From an uncultured Planctomycetales bacterium (GTDB lineage: Bacteria > Planctomycetota > Phycisphaerae > UBA1845 > PWPN01), in contig CAZUAQ010000010.1 in the NCBI GenBank assembly GCA_964618455.1, positions 1-64,000 on the forward strand: a DNA stretch of 64,000 nucleotides. The letters are read 5' to 3'. The notes under the pieces were generated by a model that was not told the origin of the DNA, ran no database searches, and saw only the letters and a list, made by a program, of their open reading frames with translations. This document shows, piece by piece, positions 52,621-58,129 of the stretch; position 1 is the first letter of the stretch; each line of letters opens with the position of its first letter. Made by a program: the position numbers and the translations under genes.

Positions 52621-53997
52621 CTAAGCGCGGGGGTCCCCGGGGTGAAGCCCGGTCGCCTCTTCCAGCCGCGCGATGAGCCAGGCGGCATCCTCCTTGCTCG
52701 GGATCATGTTCGCCAGGTGAAACGTGTCGCCCGATTCATCCTCGGCATAGAGCCGGTACGTGGTGCGACCGCCACCACGCATGAACTGGTCATAGTCGAA
52801 CTTGGACAGTCCCTCCCGGTGTTTTGATCCGCTCAGCAGCGGCAGTCCACACACCGTCCACCTGCGTCGCACGGCATCGGGGGTGATCGTCACGCGCCAT
52901 CGGCCGCTGCACGACACCAGCAGCGCCAGGAACAGCAAGGCCAGAAGGCTGACGATCAATGCGAAAGGCCAGGCCATCAGCGTCTCCGTGAAGCTCCAGT
53001 ATGCCAGGAGGCCTGCCAATGTACCGAAGCCCCCCGCCGTGATCGTGAAGAAAATCTTCCCACCGCGGTCGAGCTTCGCGCGCACCACATATTCCGAGCC
53101 ACCGTGTGCATTGGCGCGAGGCATGATCAGATCGGGACGAGGCGGTTCGAATGCGTCCGCCGCCGCCTGAAGATCCGCCGTGAACGGAGCGCGTTTCGCC
53201 GGCTCGAACTCTCCGGTCCGCACTTCTTCGGCGGGCACGTCGAACACAGGCACGATGTATTTCAGATCCAGGTTCGCCCCCGGCAGCGACGCACGGGCCC
53301 GCATCCGCCACTGGATCTTGTACGTGCGATCGGATCGCCCTCGGTCCACCGGACCCGTCGGGTCGACGTCCAGCGGGATGCTGAACGCCACCGGCACCTC
53401 CACCTCATGCGTGTCGAAGGCCACACCTGAGACTTCGACCTCCTCACGATCCGCGTAGATGATCTTCGAGCCTTTGCGCTTACTGGTGTTCTGGGAGGAC
53501 CGCCTTTCGGTAGACTCCCAGAACTCCTTGCACTGCAGGTCGACCCGGACCTTCCGCAAGCCGGACAGCCGTCCCCGAATGACCAGCCTGACACGAAGAT
53601 CACCGCCGATCCGCCCCGGCAACGTCTCCAGGATCAGATCACTCTTGCCGAAGCGTCGGTAGCGTAGTGTGGATCGAATCGCGACGTACAAGAGAAAGAT
53701 CCCAATCCCCAGGATCACGCCGTACGTCAGCGACCCCACCGTCCGCACCCAACCCTCGGCATAGGGCGCACTTTCCCGAATCGCCAGGACAAAGGGGATC
53801 ACCAGCGCGATGTACAAGGCCAGGCCACCCCAGTACAGCAAACACTCGAACAGGCTCGCCGGCGCCAGGCGCTGCCGGCGCCAATCCATGCGCTTCAGCC
53901 ATGGCCGATCGGACCTGGGTTCCGACTCAGCCGAACGTGTTTTGCGAGCGGAGACCGCTTCCGCTGTTGACCGTTGATCGAGTGGCGTCATCGCCAT
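52621..53997 (-). CDS. Hypothetical membrane protein
   Basis: 458 aa; N-terminal polar region, two TM helices early and a further TM pair near residue 330; no recognisable catalytic motif. Confidence 0.45.
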   Translation of the reverse strand: MAMTPLDQRSTAEAVSARKTRSAESEPRSDRPWLKRMDWRRQRLAPASLFECLLYWGGLALYIALVIPFVLAIRESAPYAEGWVRTVGSLTYGVILGIGIFLLYVAIRSTLRYRRFGKSDLILETLPGRIGGDLRVRLVIRGRLSGLRKVRVDLQCKEFWESTERRSSQNTSKRKGSKIIYADREEVEVSGVAFDTHEVEVPVAFSIPLDVDPTGPVDRGRSDRTYKIQWRMRARASLPGANLDLKYIVPVFDVPAEEVRTGEFEPAKRAPFTADLQAAADAFEPPRPDLIMPRANAHGGSEYVVRAKLDRGGKIFFTITAGGFGTLAGLLAYWSFTETLMAWPFALIVSLLALLFLALLVSCSGRWRVTITPDAVRRRWTVCGLPLLSGSKHREGLSKFDYDQFMRGGGRTTYRLYAEDESGDTFHLANMIPSKEDAAWLIARLEEATGLHPGDPRA

Positions 53998-54384
53998 GGC
54001 CCCCTGGATCAGAAATCATGCTTGGTTCGAGGATACCCCCCTTGGAGAAATCGGCAGAAAGGGGCCTCCATCGTGCGGTAATTCAGAGCCAGACGGCTCA
54101 TTCGGATCAATCCACACGGCGACCAGTCATCTGCAACCGAGCGTGTAACGTAAAAACGAAAAACAGACGCCTTCCCACGCGGGGAGGGCGTCTGTAGTCG
54201 TATCTTGGCTACTCCTGATCACCACAACGTGACACTCGCCGGTAACCCGACTGGAGCCTCGCTGCATGATCAGCCAAGCGACGAGAGCACAGCCCGAAGG
54301 CTGCCTCAATGCTTGGATATCCTTGGCCTCTCGGACGCGCAGATCGCGCGGTACGAGAGTCCGTCGGAAAAAAGGCCTGCCAAC

Positions 54385-54570
54385 TTACGTGGTGAGGCCG
54401 CCGAGGAGACCACCGAGAAGGTTCGTGCCGACCAGCGTCGCCACGAGCGAGATCCCGAAGTCCCACACGTTGAACAGACGGTTCACCGTGAGGTCACCAA
54501 TGCAGCCACTGCCGAGCAGCGTCGCGCCAGTCACCGTGCTTGCGAGAAGCATAGTCTTGAACTTAGTCAT
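54385..54570 (-). CDS. Small secreted/lipid-anchored glycine-rich peptide (61 aa), paralog A
   Basis: MTKFKTMLLASTVTGATLLGSGC signal; C-terminus NVWDFGISLVATLVGTNLLGGLLGGLTT; RBS aggag 9 nt upstream; a paralog lies 230 bp away. Confidence 0.5.
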   Translation of the reverse strand: MTKFKTMLLASTVTGATLLGSGCIGDLTVNRLFNVWDFGISLVATLVGTNLLGGLLGGLTT

Positions 54571-54798
54571 TAGAATTCGCTCCTAATTTTTCCTTTAGCG
54601 CCCGGGGCGACTTGTTCCACACGTCGCCTGCCAGGCATTTCCTTGCTTGTCATCCAATCTTACCGAGTGCTGCCGACCAACCACCGGAATGCTGCGTCAA
54701 TACAACTCGACGTCACCACATGCAAGGTCGGCCAATGTCACCTGGTCATTTCTCAAATCAAAATGCCAGGCCATCCAAGCCAGCAAATGCCCGTCGCC

Positions 54799-54990
54799 TT
54801 AGGTGGCCAGATTGAGGCCCGCGCCCTGCAGCAGGGTACCGGCAATGACACCAAGACCAATGTCGAACAGCTCAATGGCGGTAATCGCGATTGTGGAATT
54901 GCCGAGGTTGCCCCAGTTACCCCAACCACAGCCACCGCCGAAGAGCATCGCCGCACTCAGGATCAGGGCCCACTTTTTCATCCTATGCAT
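54799..54990 (-). CDS. Small secreted/lipid-anchored glycine-rich peptide (63 aa), paralog B
   Basis: MHRMKKWALILSAAMLFGGGCGWGNWGNLGN...ELFDIGLGVIAGTLLQGAGLNLAT; same architecture and shared F-D-x-G...GT-LL-G motif with paralog A; RBS aggagag. Confidence 0.5.
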   Translation of the reverse strand: MHRMKKWALILSAAMLFGGGCGWGNWGNLGNSTIAITAIELFDIGLGVIAGTLLQGAGLNLAT

Positions 54991-55345
54991 GGGAAGTCTC
55001 TCCTATGGAAATAACCCGGACTCCAAACTCTTGAAGCCTTTTCGAAACTCTATGACTTCGGCCCACGCGGCCGCGCCAATTTCATACGTTCACACGAACG
55101 ATACATTTATTCACTCTATGGCCCAGCATCATGGGCCTGAACATTGATTCAGGATCCGCCCTTCCGACTTACCGCTTTTGATCAGCCGGCCTGCGAATTC
55201 CGTGTCTCTTCGATTGTCGTGAAACCGAAATACTGCTCGCTCGGCAAGGCACCCTGAAGCGTGATTGCTGCTTCGGCCCTGTAGACTGGCCGCGCTTCCA
55301 ATCTAAGGGGCAGGATCATACTGATTTTCATCCCGTTTGCAAGCC

Positions 55346-56389
55346 TCAATCTCGAAAAAATCCTTCGATCGAGGTCCGGCTCACCGGGCTGATGACGCCC
55401 TTTTCCGTGATGATGCCGCGAATCAACTCGGCCGGAGTGACATCAAAAGCCGGATTGTAACACGCCACGCCCTCCGGAACCGTCCGATGGCCCATGGCCT
55501 CACCGATCTCCGCCGGATCACGCTGCTCGATCGGAATCGAGGCTCCATCGGGCAAGCTCATGTCGAACGTCGATCGAGGCGCTGCCACGTAAAACGGCAC
55601 TTTATGATAGTCAGCCAAAACGGCCAAGCCATACGTCCCGATCTTGTTGGCGGCATCGCCGTTGGCCGCAACTCGATCCGCGCCGGTGATCACCAGGTCC
55701 ACACGACCTTCGCGCATCACCTGGGCCGCCATATTGTCGCAAATCACGGAGACATCTATACCTGCGCGTGACAATTCCCACGACGTCAGGCGCGCGCCCT
55801 GAAGCAACGGACGGGTCTCGTCCGCGAAGACGCGGAACTTCCGTCCCTGCTCATGAGCGACAAACATCACCGCAAGCGCCGTCCCGTACTCCGAGGTAGC
55901 CAGTCCGCCGGCATTGCAGTGCGTCAGCACGCCCGATCCCTCCGGGATCAGCATCTGACCGGCGTCTCCAATCGCCCGACACACGGCAGCATCCTCGACC
56001 CGGATCCTCCGAGCCTCGTCCAGAACGGCGTTCTGGAGCTCCCGTGTCGTCTTCCCGCGGTACGCCTCGGCGTGGCGGCGCATCCGATCCAGCGCCCAGA
56101 ACAGATTCACGGCGGTGGGCCGGCTGCTCGCCAGGTAGTCGCATACGCTTGCCAGCTTCTCAAAGAACGCGTCCTCGGTCTCCGCATCCCGGGTTCCGAG
56201 CACGACACCCATGGCCGCCGCCACCCCGATGGCCGGGGCGCCGCGAACCCGAAGGCTCTTGATCGCCTCCCATAACGTCTCCACGTCGGTGATGGCGATC
56301 ACCTTCTCCTCTTCGGGGAGCAGGGTCTGATCGATCATCTCGATCGCCCCATCGAGCCCGCCCACCCACTCTATGGTCTTGTAAGACAT
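55346..56389 (-). CDS. mtnA: S-methyl-5-thioribose-1-phosphate isomerase (eIF-2B alpha/beta/delta family)
   Basis: Start MSYKTIEW (ATG reverse complement at 56387-56389); RVRGAPAIGVAAAMG and GADRVAANGDAANKIGTY family motifs. Confidence 0.75.
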   Translation of the reverse strand: MSYKTIEWVGGLDGAIEMIDQTLLPEEEKVIAITDVETLWEAIKSLRVRGAPAIGVAAAMGVVLGTRDAETEDAFFEKLASVCDYLASSRPTAVNLFWALDRMRRHAEAYRGKTTRELQNAVLDEARRIRVEDAAVCRAIGDAGQMLIPEGSGVLTHCNAGGLATSEYGTALAVMFVAHEQGRKFRVFADETRPLLQGARLTSWELSRAGIDVSVICDNMAAQVMREGRVDLVITGADRVAANGDAANKIGTYGLAVLADYHKVPFYVAAPRSTFDMSLPDGASIPIEQRDPAEIGEAMGHRTVPEGVACYNPAFDVTPAELIRGIITEKGVISPVSRTSIEGFFRD

Positions 56390-56393
56390 GGGC

Positions 56394-56909
56394 TTAGACA
56401 AGGCCGATCCTCTCCCTGAGAGATTGGCGTTTCTTATCGACCGATTGTGCTTGAGAACTTTTGAAATTCTTGAGGGCCTCCTCCATTTTCGGATCCGATT
56501 CGGCGAGAATCTGTACCGCCAGCAGGGCCGCATTCCGGGCGCCCGCCGAGCCGACGGAGACCGTGGCTACGGGGATGCCCGGGGGCATCTGCACCATGCT
56601 CAGGAGGGCATCCACCCCCTGCAGGGCTCCGGAGACCAGCGGTACGCCGATGACCGGGCGGGTCGTATGTGCCGCCACGACGCCGGGCAGCGCGGCCGCC
56701 ATCCCGGCGGCAGCGATGAACACGCGAACCCCGTCCTTCTCCGCCTGGGTCACGTATTCAGTGACCGCCACGGGCGTCCGGTGAGCGGAACGCACCTGCA
56801 CATCCGTGGGCACGCCGAATTCCTTGAGCTGATCGTAGCAGCGCTGCATGACCTCCCAGTCCGAATCACTGCCCATCAGTATCGCCACACGATAGTTCGC
56901 GTCAGGCAT
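56394..56909 (-). CDS. purE: N5-carboxyaminoimidazole ribonucleotide mutase
   Basis: Start MPDANYRVAILMGSDSDW; PurE motifs (SAHRTP, AAGMAAALPGVVAAHT); 171 aa. Confidence 0.85.
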   Translation of the reverse strand: MPDANYRVAILMGSDSDWEVMQRCYDQLKEFGVPTDVQVRSAHRTPVAVTEYVTQAEKDGVRVFIAAAGMAAALPGVVAAHTTRPVIGVPLVSGALQGVDALLSMVQMPPGIPVATVSVGSAGARNAALLAVQILAESDPKMEEALKNFKSSQAQSVDKKRQSLRERIGLV

Positions 56910-57328
56910 GACACCTCGTCTCCTGAAGTTCCGGCAGAGGTAATCGGACGTCCGATCGTGGGGTCCGCCCGGCCGGTCGCTTTCGATCTCGCATGACCGC
57001 CGCAAGATCTCGAAAGAGAAATTGCCTCGCCGGAAATCGAATCGTACATGTAAGGGTAACGCTTGTCGGGGGAAATGAGAAGCAGACCGGGATGTCGTAC
57101 GGCGGCGATGGGGCGCCCGAGGGGGGCGCGCCTCATCGTGCCGCGCGCAGGATCATCGCCATCCAGATCCCGGACTGTAGCGGAGCTTCCCAGTACAGAT
57201 GGCATGACTTTCCGGTCTCGCGGGCTCGCCCGCGGGACACCGGCGACAAGGCCGATGCGATCGGGCAACGCCGGTGCGCGGACATCGTAACAGAAGTCGC
57301 GAGACACCCTCCGTCAGGAGCGATCGGC

Positions 57329-58129
57329 ATGACGAGCCAACAGGGTTGCCCGGAGAAGCTGTGGAAGCGTTATCACCGGAACCGCTCGACGAAGAATCGC
57401 AATCGGCTCGTGGAGTGCTACGTGTCGCTGGTTCGCGCCGAGGCGGTGCGGATCGCGCGGCGCCTGCCCGCCCAGATCAGCATGGATGAGATCGTCAGCG
57501 CCGGTTTCGATGGGCTGATGCGGGCGGTGGAAGCGTATGACCCGGAGAAGCCCGCCAAGTTCGAGACGTTCTGCCGGCAGCGGATCCAGGGCGCGGTCAT
57601 CGACTGGCTGCGCAGCCAGGACCATCAGTCCCGCACAATCCGCCTCTTCGAGAAGCAGCGTAACCGGGCATGGGAAGAGCTGGAGCGCGAGCTGCAACGT
57701 CCGCCGACGGATGAGGAACTCCGCACCCGGCTGGACATGAGCCCCAAACAGTACGCGAAGATGTCGCGCATCTCGCACGTCGGTCAGTCGGTGCCGTTCT
57801 CGTCGATGGACGCCAAGCTGGGCAGCCTGAACGCCTCTCCGCACGAAGAGCGGACTTGGGAGGCCGAAGACCCGGACGCCATCGACCCGTCGGAGCAGAT
57901 GGAGCAGAAGATGCTCGTGGACATCCTCAAGAGTGGCCTCTGCAGGCAGGAGCGGTTGCTGCTGGCCCTGTATTACGAAGAGAACCTGTCGATGGCGGAG
58001 GTGGGTCAGGCGCTGGAATTGTCGGAGTCCCGCGTCAGCCAGATCCACAAGCAGGTGCTGCAGCAACTCCGCGACCGGTATGACTCGCGCGTCGCTGTCC
58101 GGCAATACGGCGAGGCGGTACATATCTAA
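57329..58129 (+). CDS. fliA: Flagellar sigma factor sigma-28 (FliA/WhiG family)
   Basis: Start MTSQQG with RBS caggag; region 2 (LVECYVSLVRAEAVRIARR), region 3 and region 4 (LSMAEVGQALELSESRVSQIHKQVLQQLR); 266 aa. Confidence 0.8.
   Translation: MTSQQGCPEKLWKRYHRNRSTKNRNRLVECYVSLVRAEAVRIARRLPAQISMDEIVSAGFDGLMRAVEAYDPEKPAKFETFCRQRIQGAVIDWLRSQDHQSRTIRLFEKQRNRAWEELERELQRPPTDEELRTRLDMSPKQYAKMSRISHVGQSVPFSSMDAKLGSLNASPHEERTWEAEDPDAIDPSEQMEQKMLVDILKSGLCRQERLLLALYYEENLSMAEVGQALELSESRVSQIHKQVLQQLRDRYDSRVAVRQYGEAVHI

Follow-up and report, generated by a model that had tools for sequence, protein, structure and literature searches.

Two short open reading frames (ORFs) lie in tandem on the minus strand of a 64,000-nucleotide (nt) stretch of DNA from an uncultured Planctomycetales bacterium, the whole of which is referred to here as the window. 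An earlier note, made from the letters alone, had presented them as paralogous glycine-rich secreted peptides. The locus raises the question of whether these ORFs, designated pepB (upstream) and pepA (downstream), are genes at all and, if so, what kind of product they specify. The analysis described below establishes pepB and pepA as two real small genes that are initiated separately. With good confidence, their products are exported small membrane proteins. On balance, we lean towards the view that both are lipid-anchored, glycine-zipper-like micro-membrane proteins with a putative role in the cell envelope.

Coding capacity and selection

Both ORFs were found where the earlier note had placed them, 228 nt apart in the window and each preceded by an AGGAG Shine-Dalgarno (SD) sequence, in agreement with the strong ribosome-binding sites claimed for them (Table 1). 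The context of the pepB SD, TAGGAGA-N-CTTCCC/CTCCG-ATG, is kept in 7/7 aligned lineages, and the sequence [TG]AGGAG[CT] precedes each pepA-type ORF.

Selection was measured among the window and two related metagenome contigs, L001 and L003. The synonymous divergence (dS) of pepA is 0.81-1.05, with a ratio of non-synonymous to synonymous divergence (dN/dS) of 0.22-0.23, and the corresponding values of pepB are 0.27-0.38 and 0.23-0.35. For comparison, mtnA and a nearby oxidoreductase gene display a dS of ~1.0-1.45 and a dN/dS of 0.135-0.149. Fisher tests of synonymous versus non-synonymous differences returned p values from 7e-6 to 0.012. Among the six frames, the sense frame has the lowest ratio of non-synonymous to synonymous differences per site (pN/pS; 0.35 and 0.34 for the two ORFs) and is devoid of stop codons. 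Every indel within both ORFs is a multiple of three, and the GC content at third codon positions is 0.79 and 0.70, compared with 0.76-0.84 for the neighbouring genes. The contigs resemble one another from ~90 nt ahead of pepB up to the pepA stop codon, where the similarity breaks off exactly. The reading frames are thus conserved in relatives and under purifying selection, the first of two checks that the earlier note had called for.

The second check concerned the long antisense ORFs that had been reported to overlap both peptides. Four such ORFs, of 106-123 amino acids (aa), are indeed present on the plus strand (54643..55014, 54803..55147, 54205..54573 and 54266..54586). The frame of the 123-aa ORF has a pN/pS of 1.5, that of the 122-aa ORF has a pN/pS of 1.7 and contains stops in orthologues, and that of the 114-aa ORF is likewise interrupted by stops in orthologues. 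The 106-aa ORF occupies the antisense frame that shares its wobble positions with the sense frame; its pN/pS is 0.56 and it extends into unconserved DNA. The plus-strand frames are not those under selection, and the overlapping ORFs are not supported as genes.

The 5' part of pepB shows a second kind of constraint. Codons 1-21 (54928..54990) carry zero synonymous changes over 13 synonymous sites in the three lineages compared, while the rest of the gene has a proportion of synonymous differences (pS) of 0.32-0.42 and mtnA a dS of about 1. By our own estimate, based on the pS of 0.35-0.55 found elsewhere, the probability of observing no change is roughly 4e-3 to 3e-5 per comparison. This synonymous freeze indicates a constraint at the nucleotide level, which is unexplained. 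RNA structure was considered as its cause and rejected, as neither covariation nor an excess of folding energy was found (z -0.37 and 0.0). The consensus fold pairs the pepB SD with codons 16-17, and the only two substitutions in codons 1-21 are both compatible with pairing.

A conserved two-gene module

Close relatives of both peptides were found on the metagenome contigs L001-L004, where the pepA-type sequences are 67-69% and the pepB-type sequences 79-86% identical to those of the window; the close orthologues form the clusters P0002, P0004 and P0005. A profile of three pepB-type sequences, searched against 1.84 billion cluster representatives, retrieved six more 50%-identity clusters (P0009-P0014) with expect (E) values of 1.5e-14 to 3.7e-4 and identities of 41-59%. 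In total, the pair was found in nine lineages, comprising the window and eight other metagenomic lineages, Tara Oceans marine assemblies included. Pattern scans of genome and metagenome contigs, whether based on the peptide alignments or on the invariant start region of pepB, gave no matches, and the relatives came from protein collections only. Public collections already list both peptides, letter for letter, as called proteins (NCBI and Logan sources), so that the earlier expectation that a gene caller with a length threshold would miss them does not hold.

Every readable contig displays the same arrangement: a pepB-type ORF (54-64 aa), a gap of 170-230 nt, and then a pepA-type ORF (55-61 aa). 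The genes purE and mtnA lie directly upstream of the pair wherever the contig extends that far; contig L091 stops short upstream of pepB. The downstream gene varies by lineage and encodes an oxidoreductase, an unrelated 454-aa protein, an ornithine decarboxylase, or a tRNA. The identities of mtnA among the nine lineages are 66-78%, and the peptide identities follow them loosely (r 0.54-0.58 over 15 non-independent pairs), which fits the vertical inheritance of a fixed module. Neither pepA nor pepB was found at any of 80 mtnA loci of species-representative genomes (60-68% identity; mostly Planctomycetota and Poribacteria), implying that the family belongs to one clade of Planctomycetota. The pair pepB-pepA is a conserved two-gene module of that clade, in the order (purE-)mtnA-pepB-pepA.

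Architecture of the peptides

The architecture of the peptides was drawn from alignments within 17 family sequences. All 17 start with a basic N-terminal region (Lys/Arg), followed by an uncharged hydrophobic stretch of 13-17 residues rich in Gly, Ser and Thr, one invariant Cys right after small residues, and a short Gly/Asn-rich linker. The C-terminal segment is hydrophobic and Gly-rich, and ends in G-x-[GA]-T. The pepB-type N-terminal region contains an invariant Trp7, and the further invariant residues of this type are Ser32, Asp43, Gly47, Gly51 and Gly56. In the pepA type, Cys23, Asp37, Phe38, Gly48 and Gly58 are invariant. The Cys is present in every pepB-type member, even though the MAFFT alignment splits it over several columns. 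The description of tandem genes with a signal peptide reaching up to a Cys and a Gly-rich hydrophobic C-terminal segment is borne out; the Cys is conserved in every member examined and stands in a lipobox-like context.

A lipoprotein pattern modelled on PROSITE PS51257 (Cys at positions 15-35, small residues before it, and a K/R-containing N-terminal region), is matched by both window peptides, at Cys23 of pepA and Cys21 of pepB, and by 12/17 members of the family. For the N-terminal stretch, the 19-residue Kyte-Doolittle maximum is 1.07-1.4, a value under the transmembrane range and signal-peptide-like. The C-terminal 30 residues reach a 19-residue maximum of 1.74-1.80 on the same scale, with an Eisenberg mean hydrophobicity of 0.56-0.59 and a hydrophobic moment of 0.08-0.09. 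High hydropathy together with a low hydrophobic moment points to a helix that spans the membrane, as opposed to an amphipathic helix at its surface. At net charges of -1 and -2, both mature peptides are anionic.

In the AlphaFold2 models, a signal helix leads to a coil at the Cys, beyond which a single long helix encompasses residues 33-61 of pepB and 28-59 of pepA; the pepA model was built from two sequences only. Small residues recur in the helix: GGLLGG in pepA provides two GxxxG pairs, pepB contains DxxxGxxxG, and a full GxxxGxxxG is found in some relatives (P0014 and P0011).

Relationship between pepA and pepB

It is certain that pepA and pepB share an architecture, and their common ancestry is likely, though not proven, on the strength of profile comparisons. 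A direct BLASTP comparison of the two is not significant (E 2.6), and shallow profiles align at the lipobox only. When profiles of 7 pepA-type and 9 pepB-type sequences were compared with hhalign, the alignment covered 50 columns over the full length with 94% probability and an E value of 1.4e-7. As a control, the pepA and pepB profiles were compared with E. coli OsmB, another small Gly-rich lipoprotein, and yielded a probability of <0.5%. With the signal peptides left out, hhalign aligns just the Gly-rich C-terminus, at 24% probability. Paralogy, as asserted by the earlier note, is likely, with most of the evidence for it coming from the Gly-rich tail and the signal peptide.

The shared C-terminal motif that had been put forward holds only approximately: pepA reads W-D-F-G-I ... 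A-TLV-GT-N-LL-GG and pepB reads F-D-I-G-L ... A-GT-LL-Q-G. In one lineage (L096), both peptides share the identical end GLGVAT.

Leaders, candidate promoter and terminator-like hairpins

The spacer between mtnA and pepB (54991..55345, minus strand) holds two conserved blocks across seven lineages. A candidate promoter lies at its upstream end; the TATGAT hexamer is kept in the window, L001, L003, L096 and L099, and TTGCAA only in the window, L001 and L003. The 6-bp stem of the hairpin at 55284..55303 is 95% paired in the 7 lineages, with compensatory changes at 4/6 pairs. The observed values were reached by 1-3/500 shuffles, and the element is unique in the window. A variable stretch of 100-280 nt separates this hairpin from the block TTGGCGCGGCCGCGTGGGCCGA. 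Closer to the gene, the GC-rich hairpin at 55019..55038 keeps its stem in 7 lineages; its loop varies, and two-sided changes occur at 3 pairs. Taken from this pattern of conservation, pepB appears to be regulated through its leader: transcription would start at a promoter just after mtnA, proceed through a conserved structured leader, and meet a terminator-like hairpin before the ribosome-binding site.

The hairpin in the pepA leader comprises 11 pairs, 2 of them compensatory among 3 sequences, and is common to close relatives only. The roughly 190 nt that follow the pepA stop codon (54150..54400) are strongly structured, with a minimum free energy of -114 kcal/mol (z -4.7), and lack conservation in L001 and L003. 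The terminator-like hairpin found there, ~190 nt past the stop codon, is likely the end of the pepA transcript. A search of Rfam with the leaders and the 3' region revealed nothing relevant, and no tRNA was found in the region.

Comparison with known families and proposed function

The peptides belong to no described protein family among the libraries searched. Pfam gave no relevant match, with cut-offs of E<=1 for the two window peptides and E<=10 for the set of 16 family members. NCBIfam gave nothing relevant beyond a weak signal-peptide match, and the peptides had no match in PADLOC, PHROGs or the PDB sequences.

Their nearest functional analogues may be OsmB, SlyB and YfgH. As in the glycine-zipper outer-membrane lipoproteins of E. 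coli (OsmB, SlyB, YfgH and YiaD; PF05433), pepA and pepB would be small lipoproteins, and their mature part consists mostly of a Gly-rich helix, predicted to be membrane-embedded, with some GxxxG spacing. Glycine-zipper lipoproteins have been proposed to act as envelope oligomerisers (preprint 10.64898/2025.12.22.696046). By contrast with these families, pepA and pepB have no profile match to them or to OsmB. Their mature part is one helix in the AlphaFold2 models (pLDDT 61-65) instead of a two-transmembrane glycine-zipper hairpin, their zipper is short (one or two GxxxG) with an invariant Asp at its head, and they are always a heterologous pair, found in Planctomycetota.

In the mechanism that we propose, each precursor would be exported via the Sec pathway by its short signal peptide. 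The invariant Cys would then most likely be modified with diacylglyceryl by Lgt and become the new N-terminus after cleavage by signal peptidase II (LspA); lipidation at this residue is moderately probable. The product would be an anionic lipopeptide of 39-43 residues, made of a short Gly/Asn-rich linker and one hydrophobic helix of ~30 residues with small residues at GxxxG spacing, an invariant Asp near its start, and the conserved C-terminal G-x-[GA]-T. The helix is predicted to be embedded in the membrane rather than to lie on its surface as an amphipathic helix. From their obligate pairing and the matching C-termini within a genome, pepA and pepB probably pack together, or within a larger oligomer, through the face formed by the small residues and the Asp. 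By analogy only, with OsmB, SlyB and YfgH, the peptides may be small envelope or membrane components with a structural or stress-related role. That they stabilise the envelope as a hetero-oligomer is a more tentative proposal, to which we give rather low credence.

A number of observations weigh against this reading of the peptides as lipid-anchored, glycine-zipper-like membrane proteins under leader control. The lipobox is atypical, being G-S-G-C in pepA and G-G-G-C in pepB as compared with [LVI][ASTVI][GAS]C: positions -1 and -2 fit, and position -3 is Gly, not Leu, Val or Ile. In 5/17 members the PS51257-like pattern fails, with Tyr, His, Phe or Asn near the Cys (e.g. F or N at -1). A C-terminal transmembrane helix without positive residues behind it is unusual as a stop-transfer anchor, and the confidence of the AlphaFold2 models is modest (predicted local distance difference test, pLDDT, 61-65). 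The glycine-zipper models of Pfam (PF05433/PF13488/PF13441/PF13436) are unmatched even at E<=10, and the functional likeness to glycine-zipper lipoproteins is therefore only an analogy. To these points are added the weak hhalign match between the mature regions of the two peptides (24% probability), and the fold energy of the leader, which is no better than that of shuffled sequence (z -0.37).

The main alternative, which we regard as unlikely though well short of negligible, takes the peptides as uncleaved two-helix hairpin micro-membrane proteins. The N-terminal hydrophobic segment would then stay in place as a permanent transmembrane helix. The Cys would sit in a short periplasmic loop, where it could form a disulfide between the two peptides or bind a metal, and the proteins would be small components of a larger membrane complex or would modulate it. 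The AlphaFold2 models, with their two helices linked by a Gly-rich turn, and the non-canonical lipobox of several members are consistent with this arrangement, and the invariant Trp7 of pepB and the invariant Asp of the second helix would suit a structural membrane subunit. However, the first hydrophobic stretch, at ~13-17 residues, is Gly/Ser/Thr-rich and too low in hydropathy for a transmembrane segment (Kyte-Doolittle maximum 1.07-1.4), and the Cys always comes right after small residues at the end of this stretch, as in lipoproteins. Moreover, no conserved gene for a large membrane-protein partner accompanies the pair, whose downstream neighbours vary across lineages. The 458-aa membrane protein encoded downstream in the window was considered as such a partner and rejected: it is missing in L001, shows no relation to the 454-aa neighbour of L092, and belongs to no family.

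The tandem layout recalls two systems in which small membrane-active peptides are encoded side by side. In E. coli, ecnA and ecnB are tandem paralogues that each encode a very small lipoprotein. Class IIb bacteriocins consist of two peptides of 30-45 residues, encoded by adjacent genes, whose GxxxG helices act jointly. The pepB/pepA locus is likewise a tandem pair of tiny lipoprotein-type genes, as is the entericidin locus (PF08085), and its adjacent genes encode GxxxG-bearing hydrophobic helices, as do those of class IIb bacteriocins; a gene for an ATP-binding cassette (ABC) transporter lies ~5 kb off in the window. An exported toxic or antagonistic pair, whether class IIb-like or an entericidin-like lytic lipoprotein with its antidote, in which the helices would jointly permeabilise membranes, is nonetheless improbable. 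The leaders are basic and hydrophobic, of the Sec/lipobox type, unlike the double-glycine leaders of class IIb bacteriocins, and the mature parts are anionic (-1 and -2), unlike the cationic bacteriocins. Unlike the amphipathic mature entericidins, their helices are uniformly hydrophobic (moment 0.08-0.09), and the peptides have no match to the Entericidin model of Pfam (PF08085). Neither a transporter with a C39 peptidase nor any other dedicated exporter, nor an immunity gene, was found in the conserved neighbourhood, in which only the housekeeping genes purE and mtnA are conserved. The ABC transporter of the window matches Pfam ABC_membrane, ABC_tran and, below threshold, SMC_N only, a peptidase domain was not found in it, and the other contigs show no ABC transporter gene over the length that they cover. 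The fixed synteny and the loose tracking of mtnA fit a vertically inherited core pair, not an accessory weapon. The labels "secreted" and "bacteriocin-like" of the earlier note find little or no support in the anionic, membrane-helix-like mature parts and in the housekeeping context; of the three options it had listed, lipid-anchored peptides or small membrane proteins fit best.

A lipidated peptide of the kind known as DAG-RiPP, a ribosomally synthesised and post-translationally modified peptide (RiPP) whose core is modified enzymatically before lipidation via the lipoprotein pathway, is a very improbable identity for pepA and pepB. Small precursors with lipoprotein-type signals are a hallmark of the DAG-RiPPs (PMC13056109), and pepA and pepB share with them the short precursor, the lipoprotein-type signal and the Cys at the predicted mature N-terminus. 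In addition, Phycisphaerales carry arrays of several such small ORFs at the same genomic position. However, the one Cys of each peptide is that of the lipobox, and the core is a hydrophobic helix and not a Cys-containing motif. No MNIO (DUF692), ChrH-like or other modifying-enzyme gene was found in the conserved neighbourhoods, that is, among the called genes of the nine loci and the neighbours in the window.

Finally, the possibility that the locus does not code for these proteins, and instead specifies a conserved RNA (a leader or small RNA) or a true gene in an overlapping plus-strand ORF, is hardly tenable and largely refuted: the synonymous freeze of pepB codons 1-21 in three lineages, the covarying leader hairpins and the presence of long antisense ORFs would suit it, but they are outweighed by the many synonymous changes in the rest of pepB and in all of pepA with dN/dS well under 1, by antisense frames that have a pN/pS of 1.5-1.9, contain stops in orthologues or, in the wobble-sharing frame, have the higher ratio and run into unconserved DNA, and by a protein family whose members, retrieved at 40-60% identity, retain the architecture.

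Features of the locus and neighbouring genes

The coordinates of the features are compiled in Table 1. All neighbouring genes of the pair are on the minus strand, and a gene for a GFO/IDH-type oxidoreductase is also found downstream of it on that strand.

Table 1. Features of the pepB-pepA locus and its surroundings; positions refer to the window.
Feature	Position	Strand	Description
pepB	54799..54990	minus	63-aa precursor; begins MHRMKKW and reaches LFGGGC21; sequence MHRMKKWALILSAAMLFGGGC-GWGNWGNLGNSTIAITAIELFDIGLGVIAGTLLQGAGLNLAT
pepB, parts	Cys21 codon 54928..54930	minus	predicted signal peptide, residues 1-20; mature part, 43 aa
pepB, mature part		minus	G/N/W-rich linker, then hydrophobic helix with Asp43, Gly47, Gly51 and Gly56; C-terminus -AT
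pepA	54385..54570	minus	61-aa precursor; begins MTKFKT and reaches LLGSGC23; sequence MTKFKTMLLASTVTGATLLGSGC-IGDLTVNRLFNVWDFGISLVATLVGTNLLGGLLGGLTT
pepA, parts	Cys23 codon 54502..54504	minus	predicted signal peptide, residues 1-22; mature part, 39 aa
pepA, mature part		minus	motif RLFNVWDFG, then Gly-rich helix ...GTNLLGGLLGGLTT
pepB Shine-Dalgarno	55000..55004	minus	AGGAG; 9-nt spacer to ATG
pepA Shine-Dalgarno	54580..54584	minus	AGGAG; 9-nt spacer to ATG
Candidate pepB promoter	55315..55342	minus	sigma-70-like, TTGCAA-N16-TATGAT; directly after the mtnA stop codon
pepB leader hairpin	55284..55303	minus	GATTGG-AAGCGCGG-CCAGTC; conserved 8-nt loop A[AT]G[CT]GCGG
Conserved leader block	55058..55079	minus	TTGGCGCGGCCGCGTGGGCCGA; holds a CGGCC/GGCCG hairpin and the palindrome CGCGGCCGCG; unique in the window
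GC-rich hairpin with U-rich tract	55019..55038	minus	terminator- or attenuator-like; ends ~15 nt before the pepB SD
pepA leader hairpin	54600..54636	minus	GCCTG..GGCGAC...GTCGCC.CGGGC; after the conserved ACAAGCAAGGAAAT; no U run behind it
Intrinsic-terminator-like hairpin with U tract	54152..54195 (hairpin 54163..54195)	minus	14-nt arms, 93% complementary; 5-nt loop
mtnA	55346..56389	minus	S-methyl-5-thioribose-1-phosphate isomerase; conserved upstream neighbour
purE	56394..57005	minus	AIR carboxylase family; conserved, upstream of mtnA
458-aa predicted membrane protein	52621..53997	minus	downstream; no match in Pfam, NCBIfam, PADLOC or PHROGs

The longest ORF of mtnA (55346..56533, 395 aa) is probably over-extended, and position 56389 is the likely start (MSYKTIEW). 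Homologues are 347-359 aa long, the family matches set in at about residue 50, and with 56389 as its start the gene no longer overlaps purE. The gene for the 458-aa membrane protein is missing between pepA and the oxidoreductase gene in L001, which corresponds to either an insertion in the lineage of the window or a loss in that of L001. A sigma-70-family gene (56993..58129, plus strand) lies divergently upstream of purE, is found in the same place in L001, and may be part of the conserved neighbourhood.

Small, putatively exported peptides are also encoded after mtnA in other Planctomycetota. In Phycisphaerales (L060:11282-11944; L086:555-3732; L087:1342-2142), the stretch directly after purE and mtnA contains between three and eight small ORFs (40-84 aa), all with a strong SD, a signal-like N-terminus and a Cys that often stands in a Q-x-x-C context. 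These ORFs are conserved over several metagenomes; two of them (#5 and #6) are Cys-rich. Another Planctomycetota metagenome-assembled genome (L006:11281-11978) encodes, just behind mtnA, two small secreted peptides that are Cys-rich; the first is homologous to the Phycisphaerales ORF #5 (BLASTP E 3e-8), and the second resembles #6 by eye only. Homology of the mtnA-adjacent Phycisphaerales peptides to pepA and pepB was considered and rejected, as only the signal-peptide region aligns, and they are regarded as positional analogues.

Implications

The most far-reaching form of the proposal, which we put forward as a speculation more likely wrong than right, is that the pair is an undescribed, vertically inherited envelope module: a lipidated single-helix hetero-oligomer, held together by an Asp-headed glycine zipper and placed under a new cis-regulatory leader RNA, in which a hairpin with a conserved loop near the promoter would be combined with an attenuator-like terminator ahead of the ribosome-binding site. 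The site 3' of purE-mtnA would, in addition, be a conserved place for batteries of small Cys-anchored exported peptides across classes of Planctomycetota, of which there are three forms: the pepB/pepA pair, the eight small ORFs of Phycisphaerales, and the two Cys-rich ORFs of another lineage.

Annotation tends to pass over small membrane proteins and small lipoproteins, and understanding of the planctomycete envelope is poor. The locus offers a tractable conserved pair with mature peptides of ~40 residues, invariant Cys, Asp, Gly and C-terminal Thr residues, and a fixed genomic address. With this address, the invariant residues and the structured leader, the locus is well suited to defining a new small-protein family and perhaps a new regulatory RNA. 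If the peptides should turn out to be only "conserved hypothetical lipoproteins", the finding would be an ordinary one. If they do stabilise or organise membranes in the manner of E. coli SlyB and YfgH, the principle would reach a distant phylum, in a simpler single-helix, two-component design.

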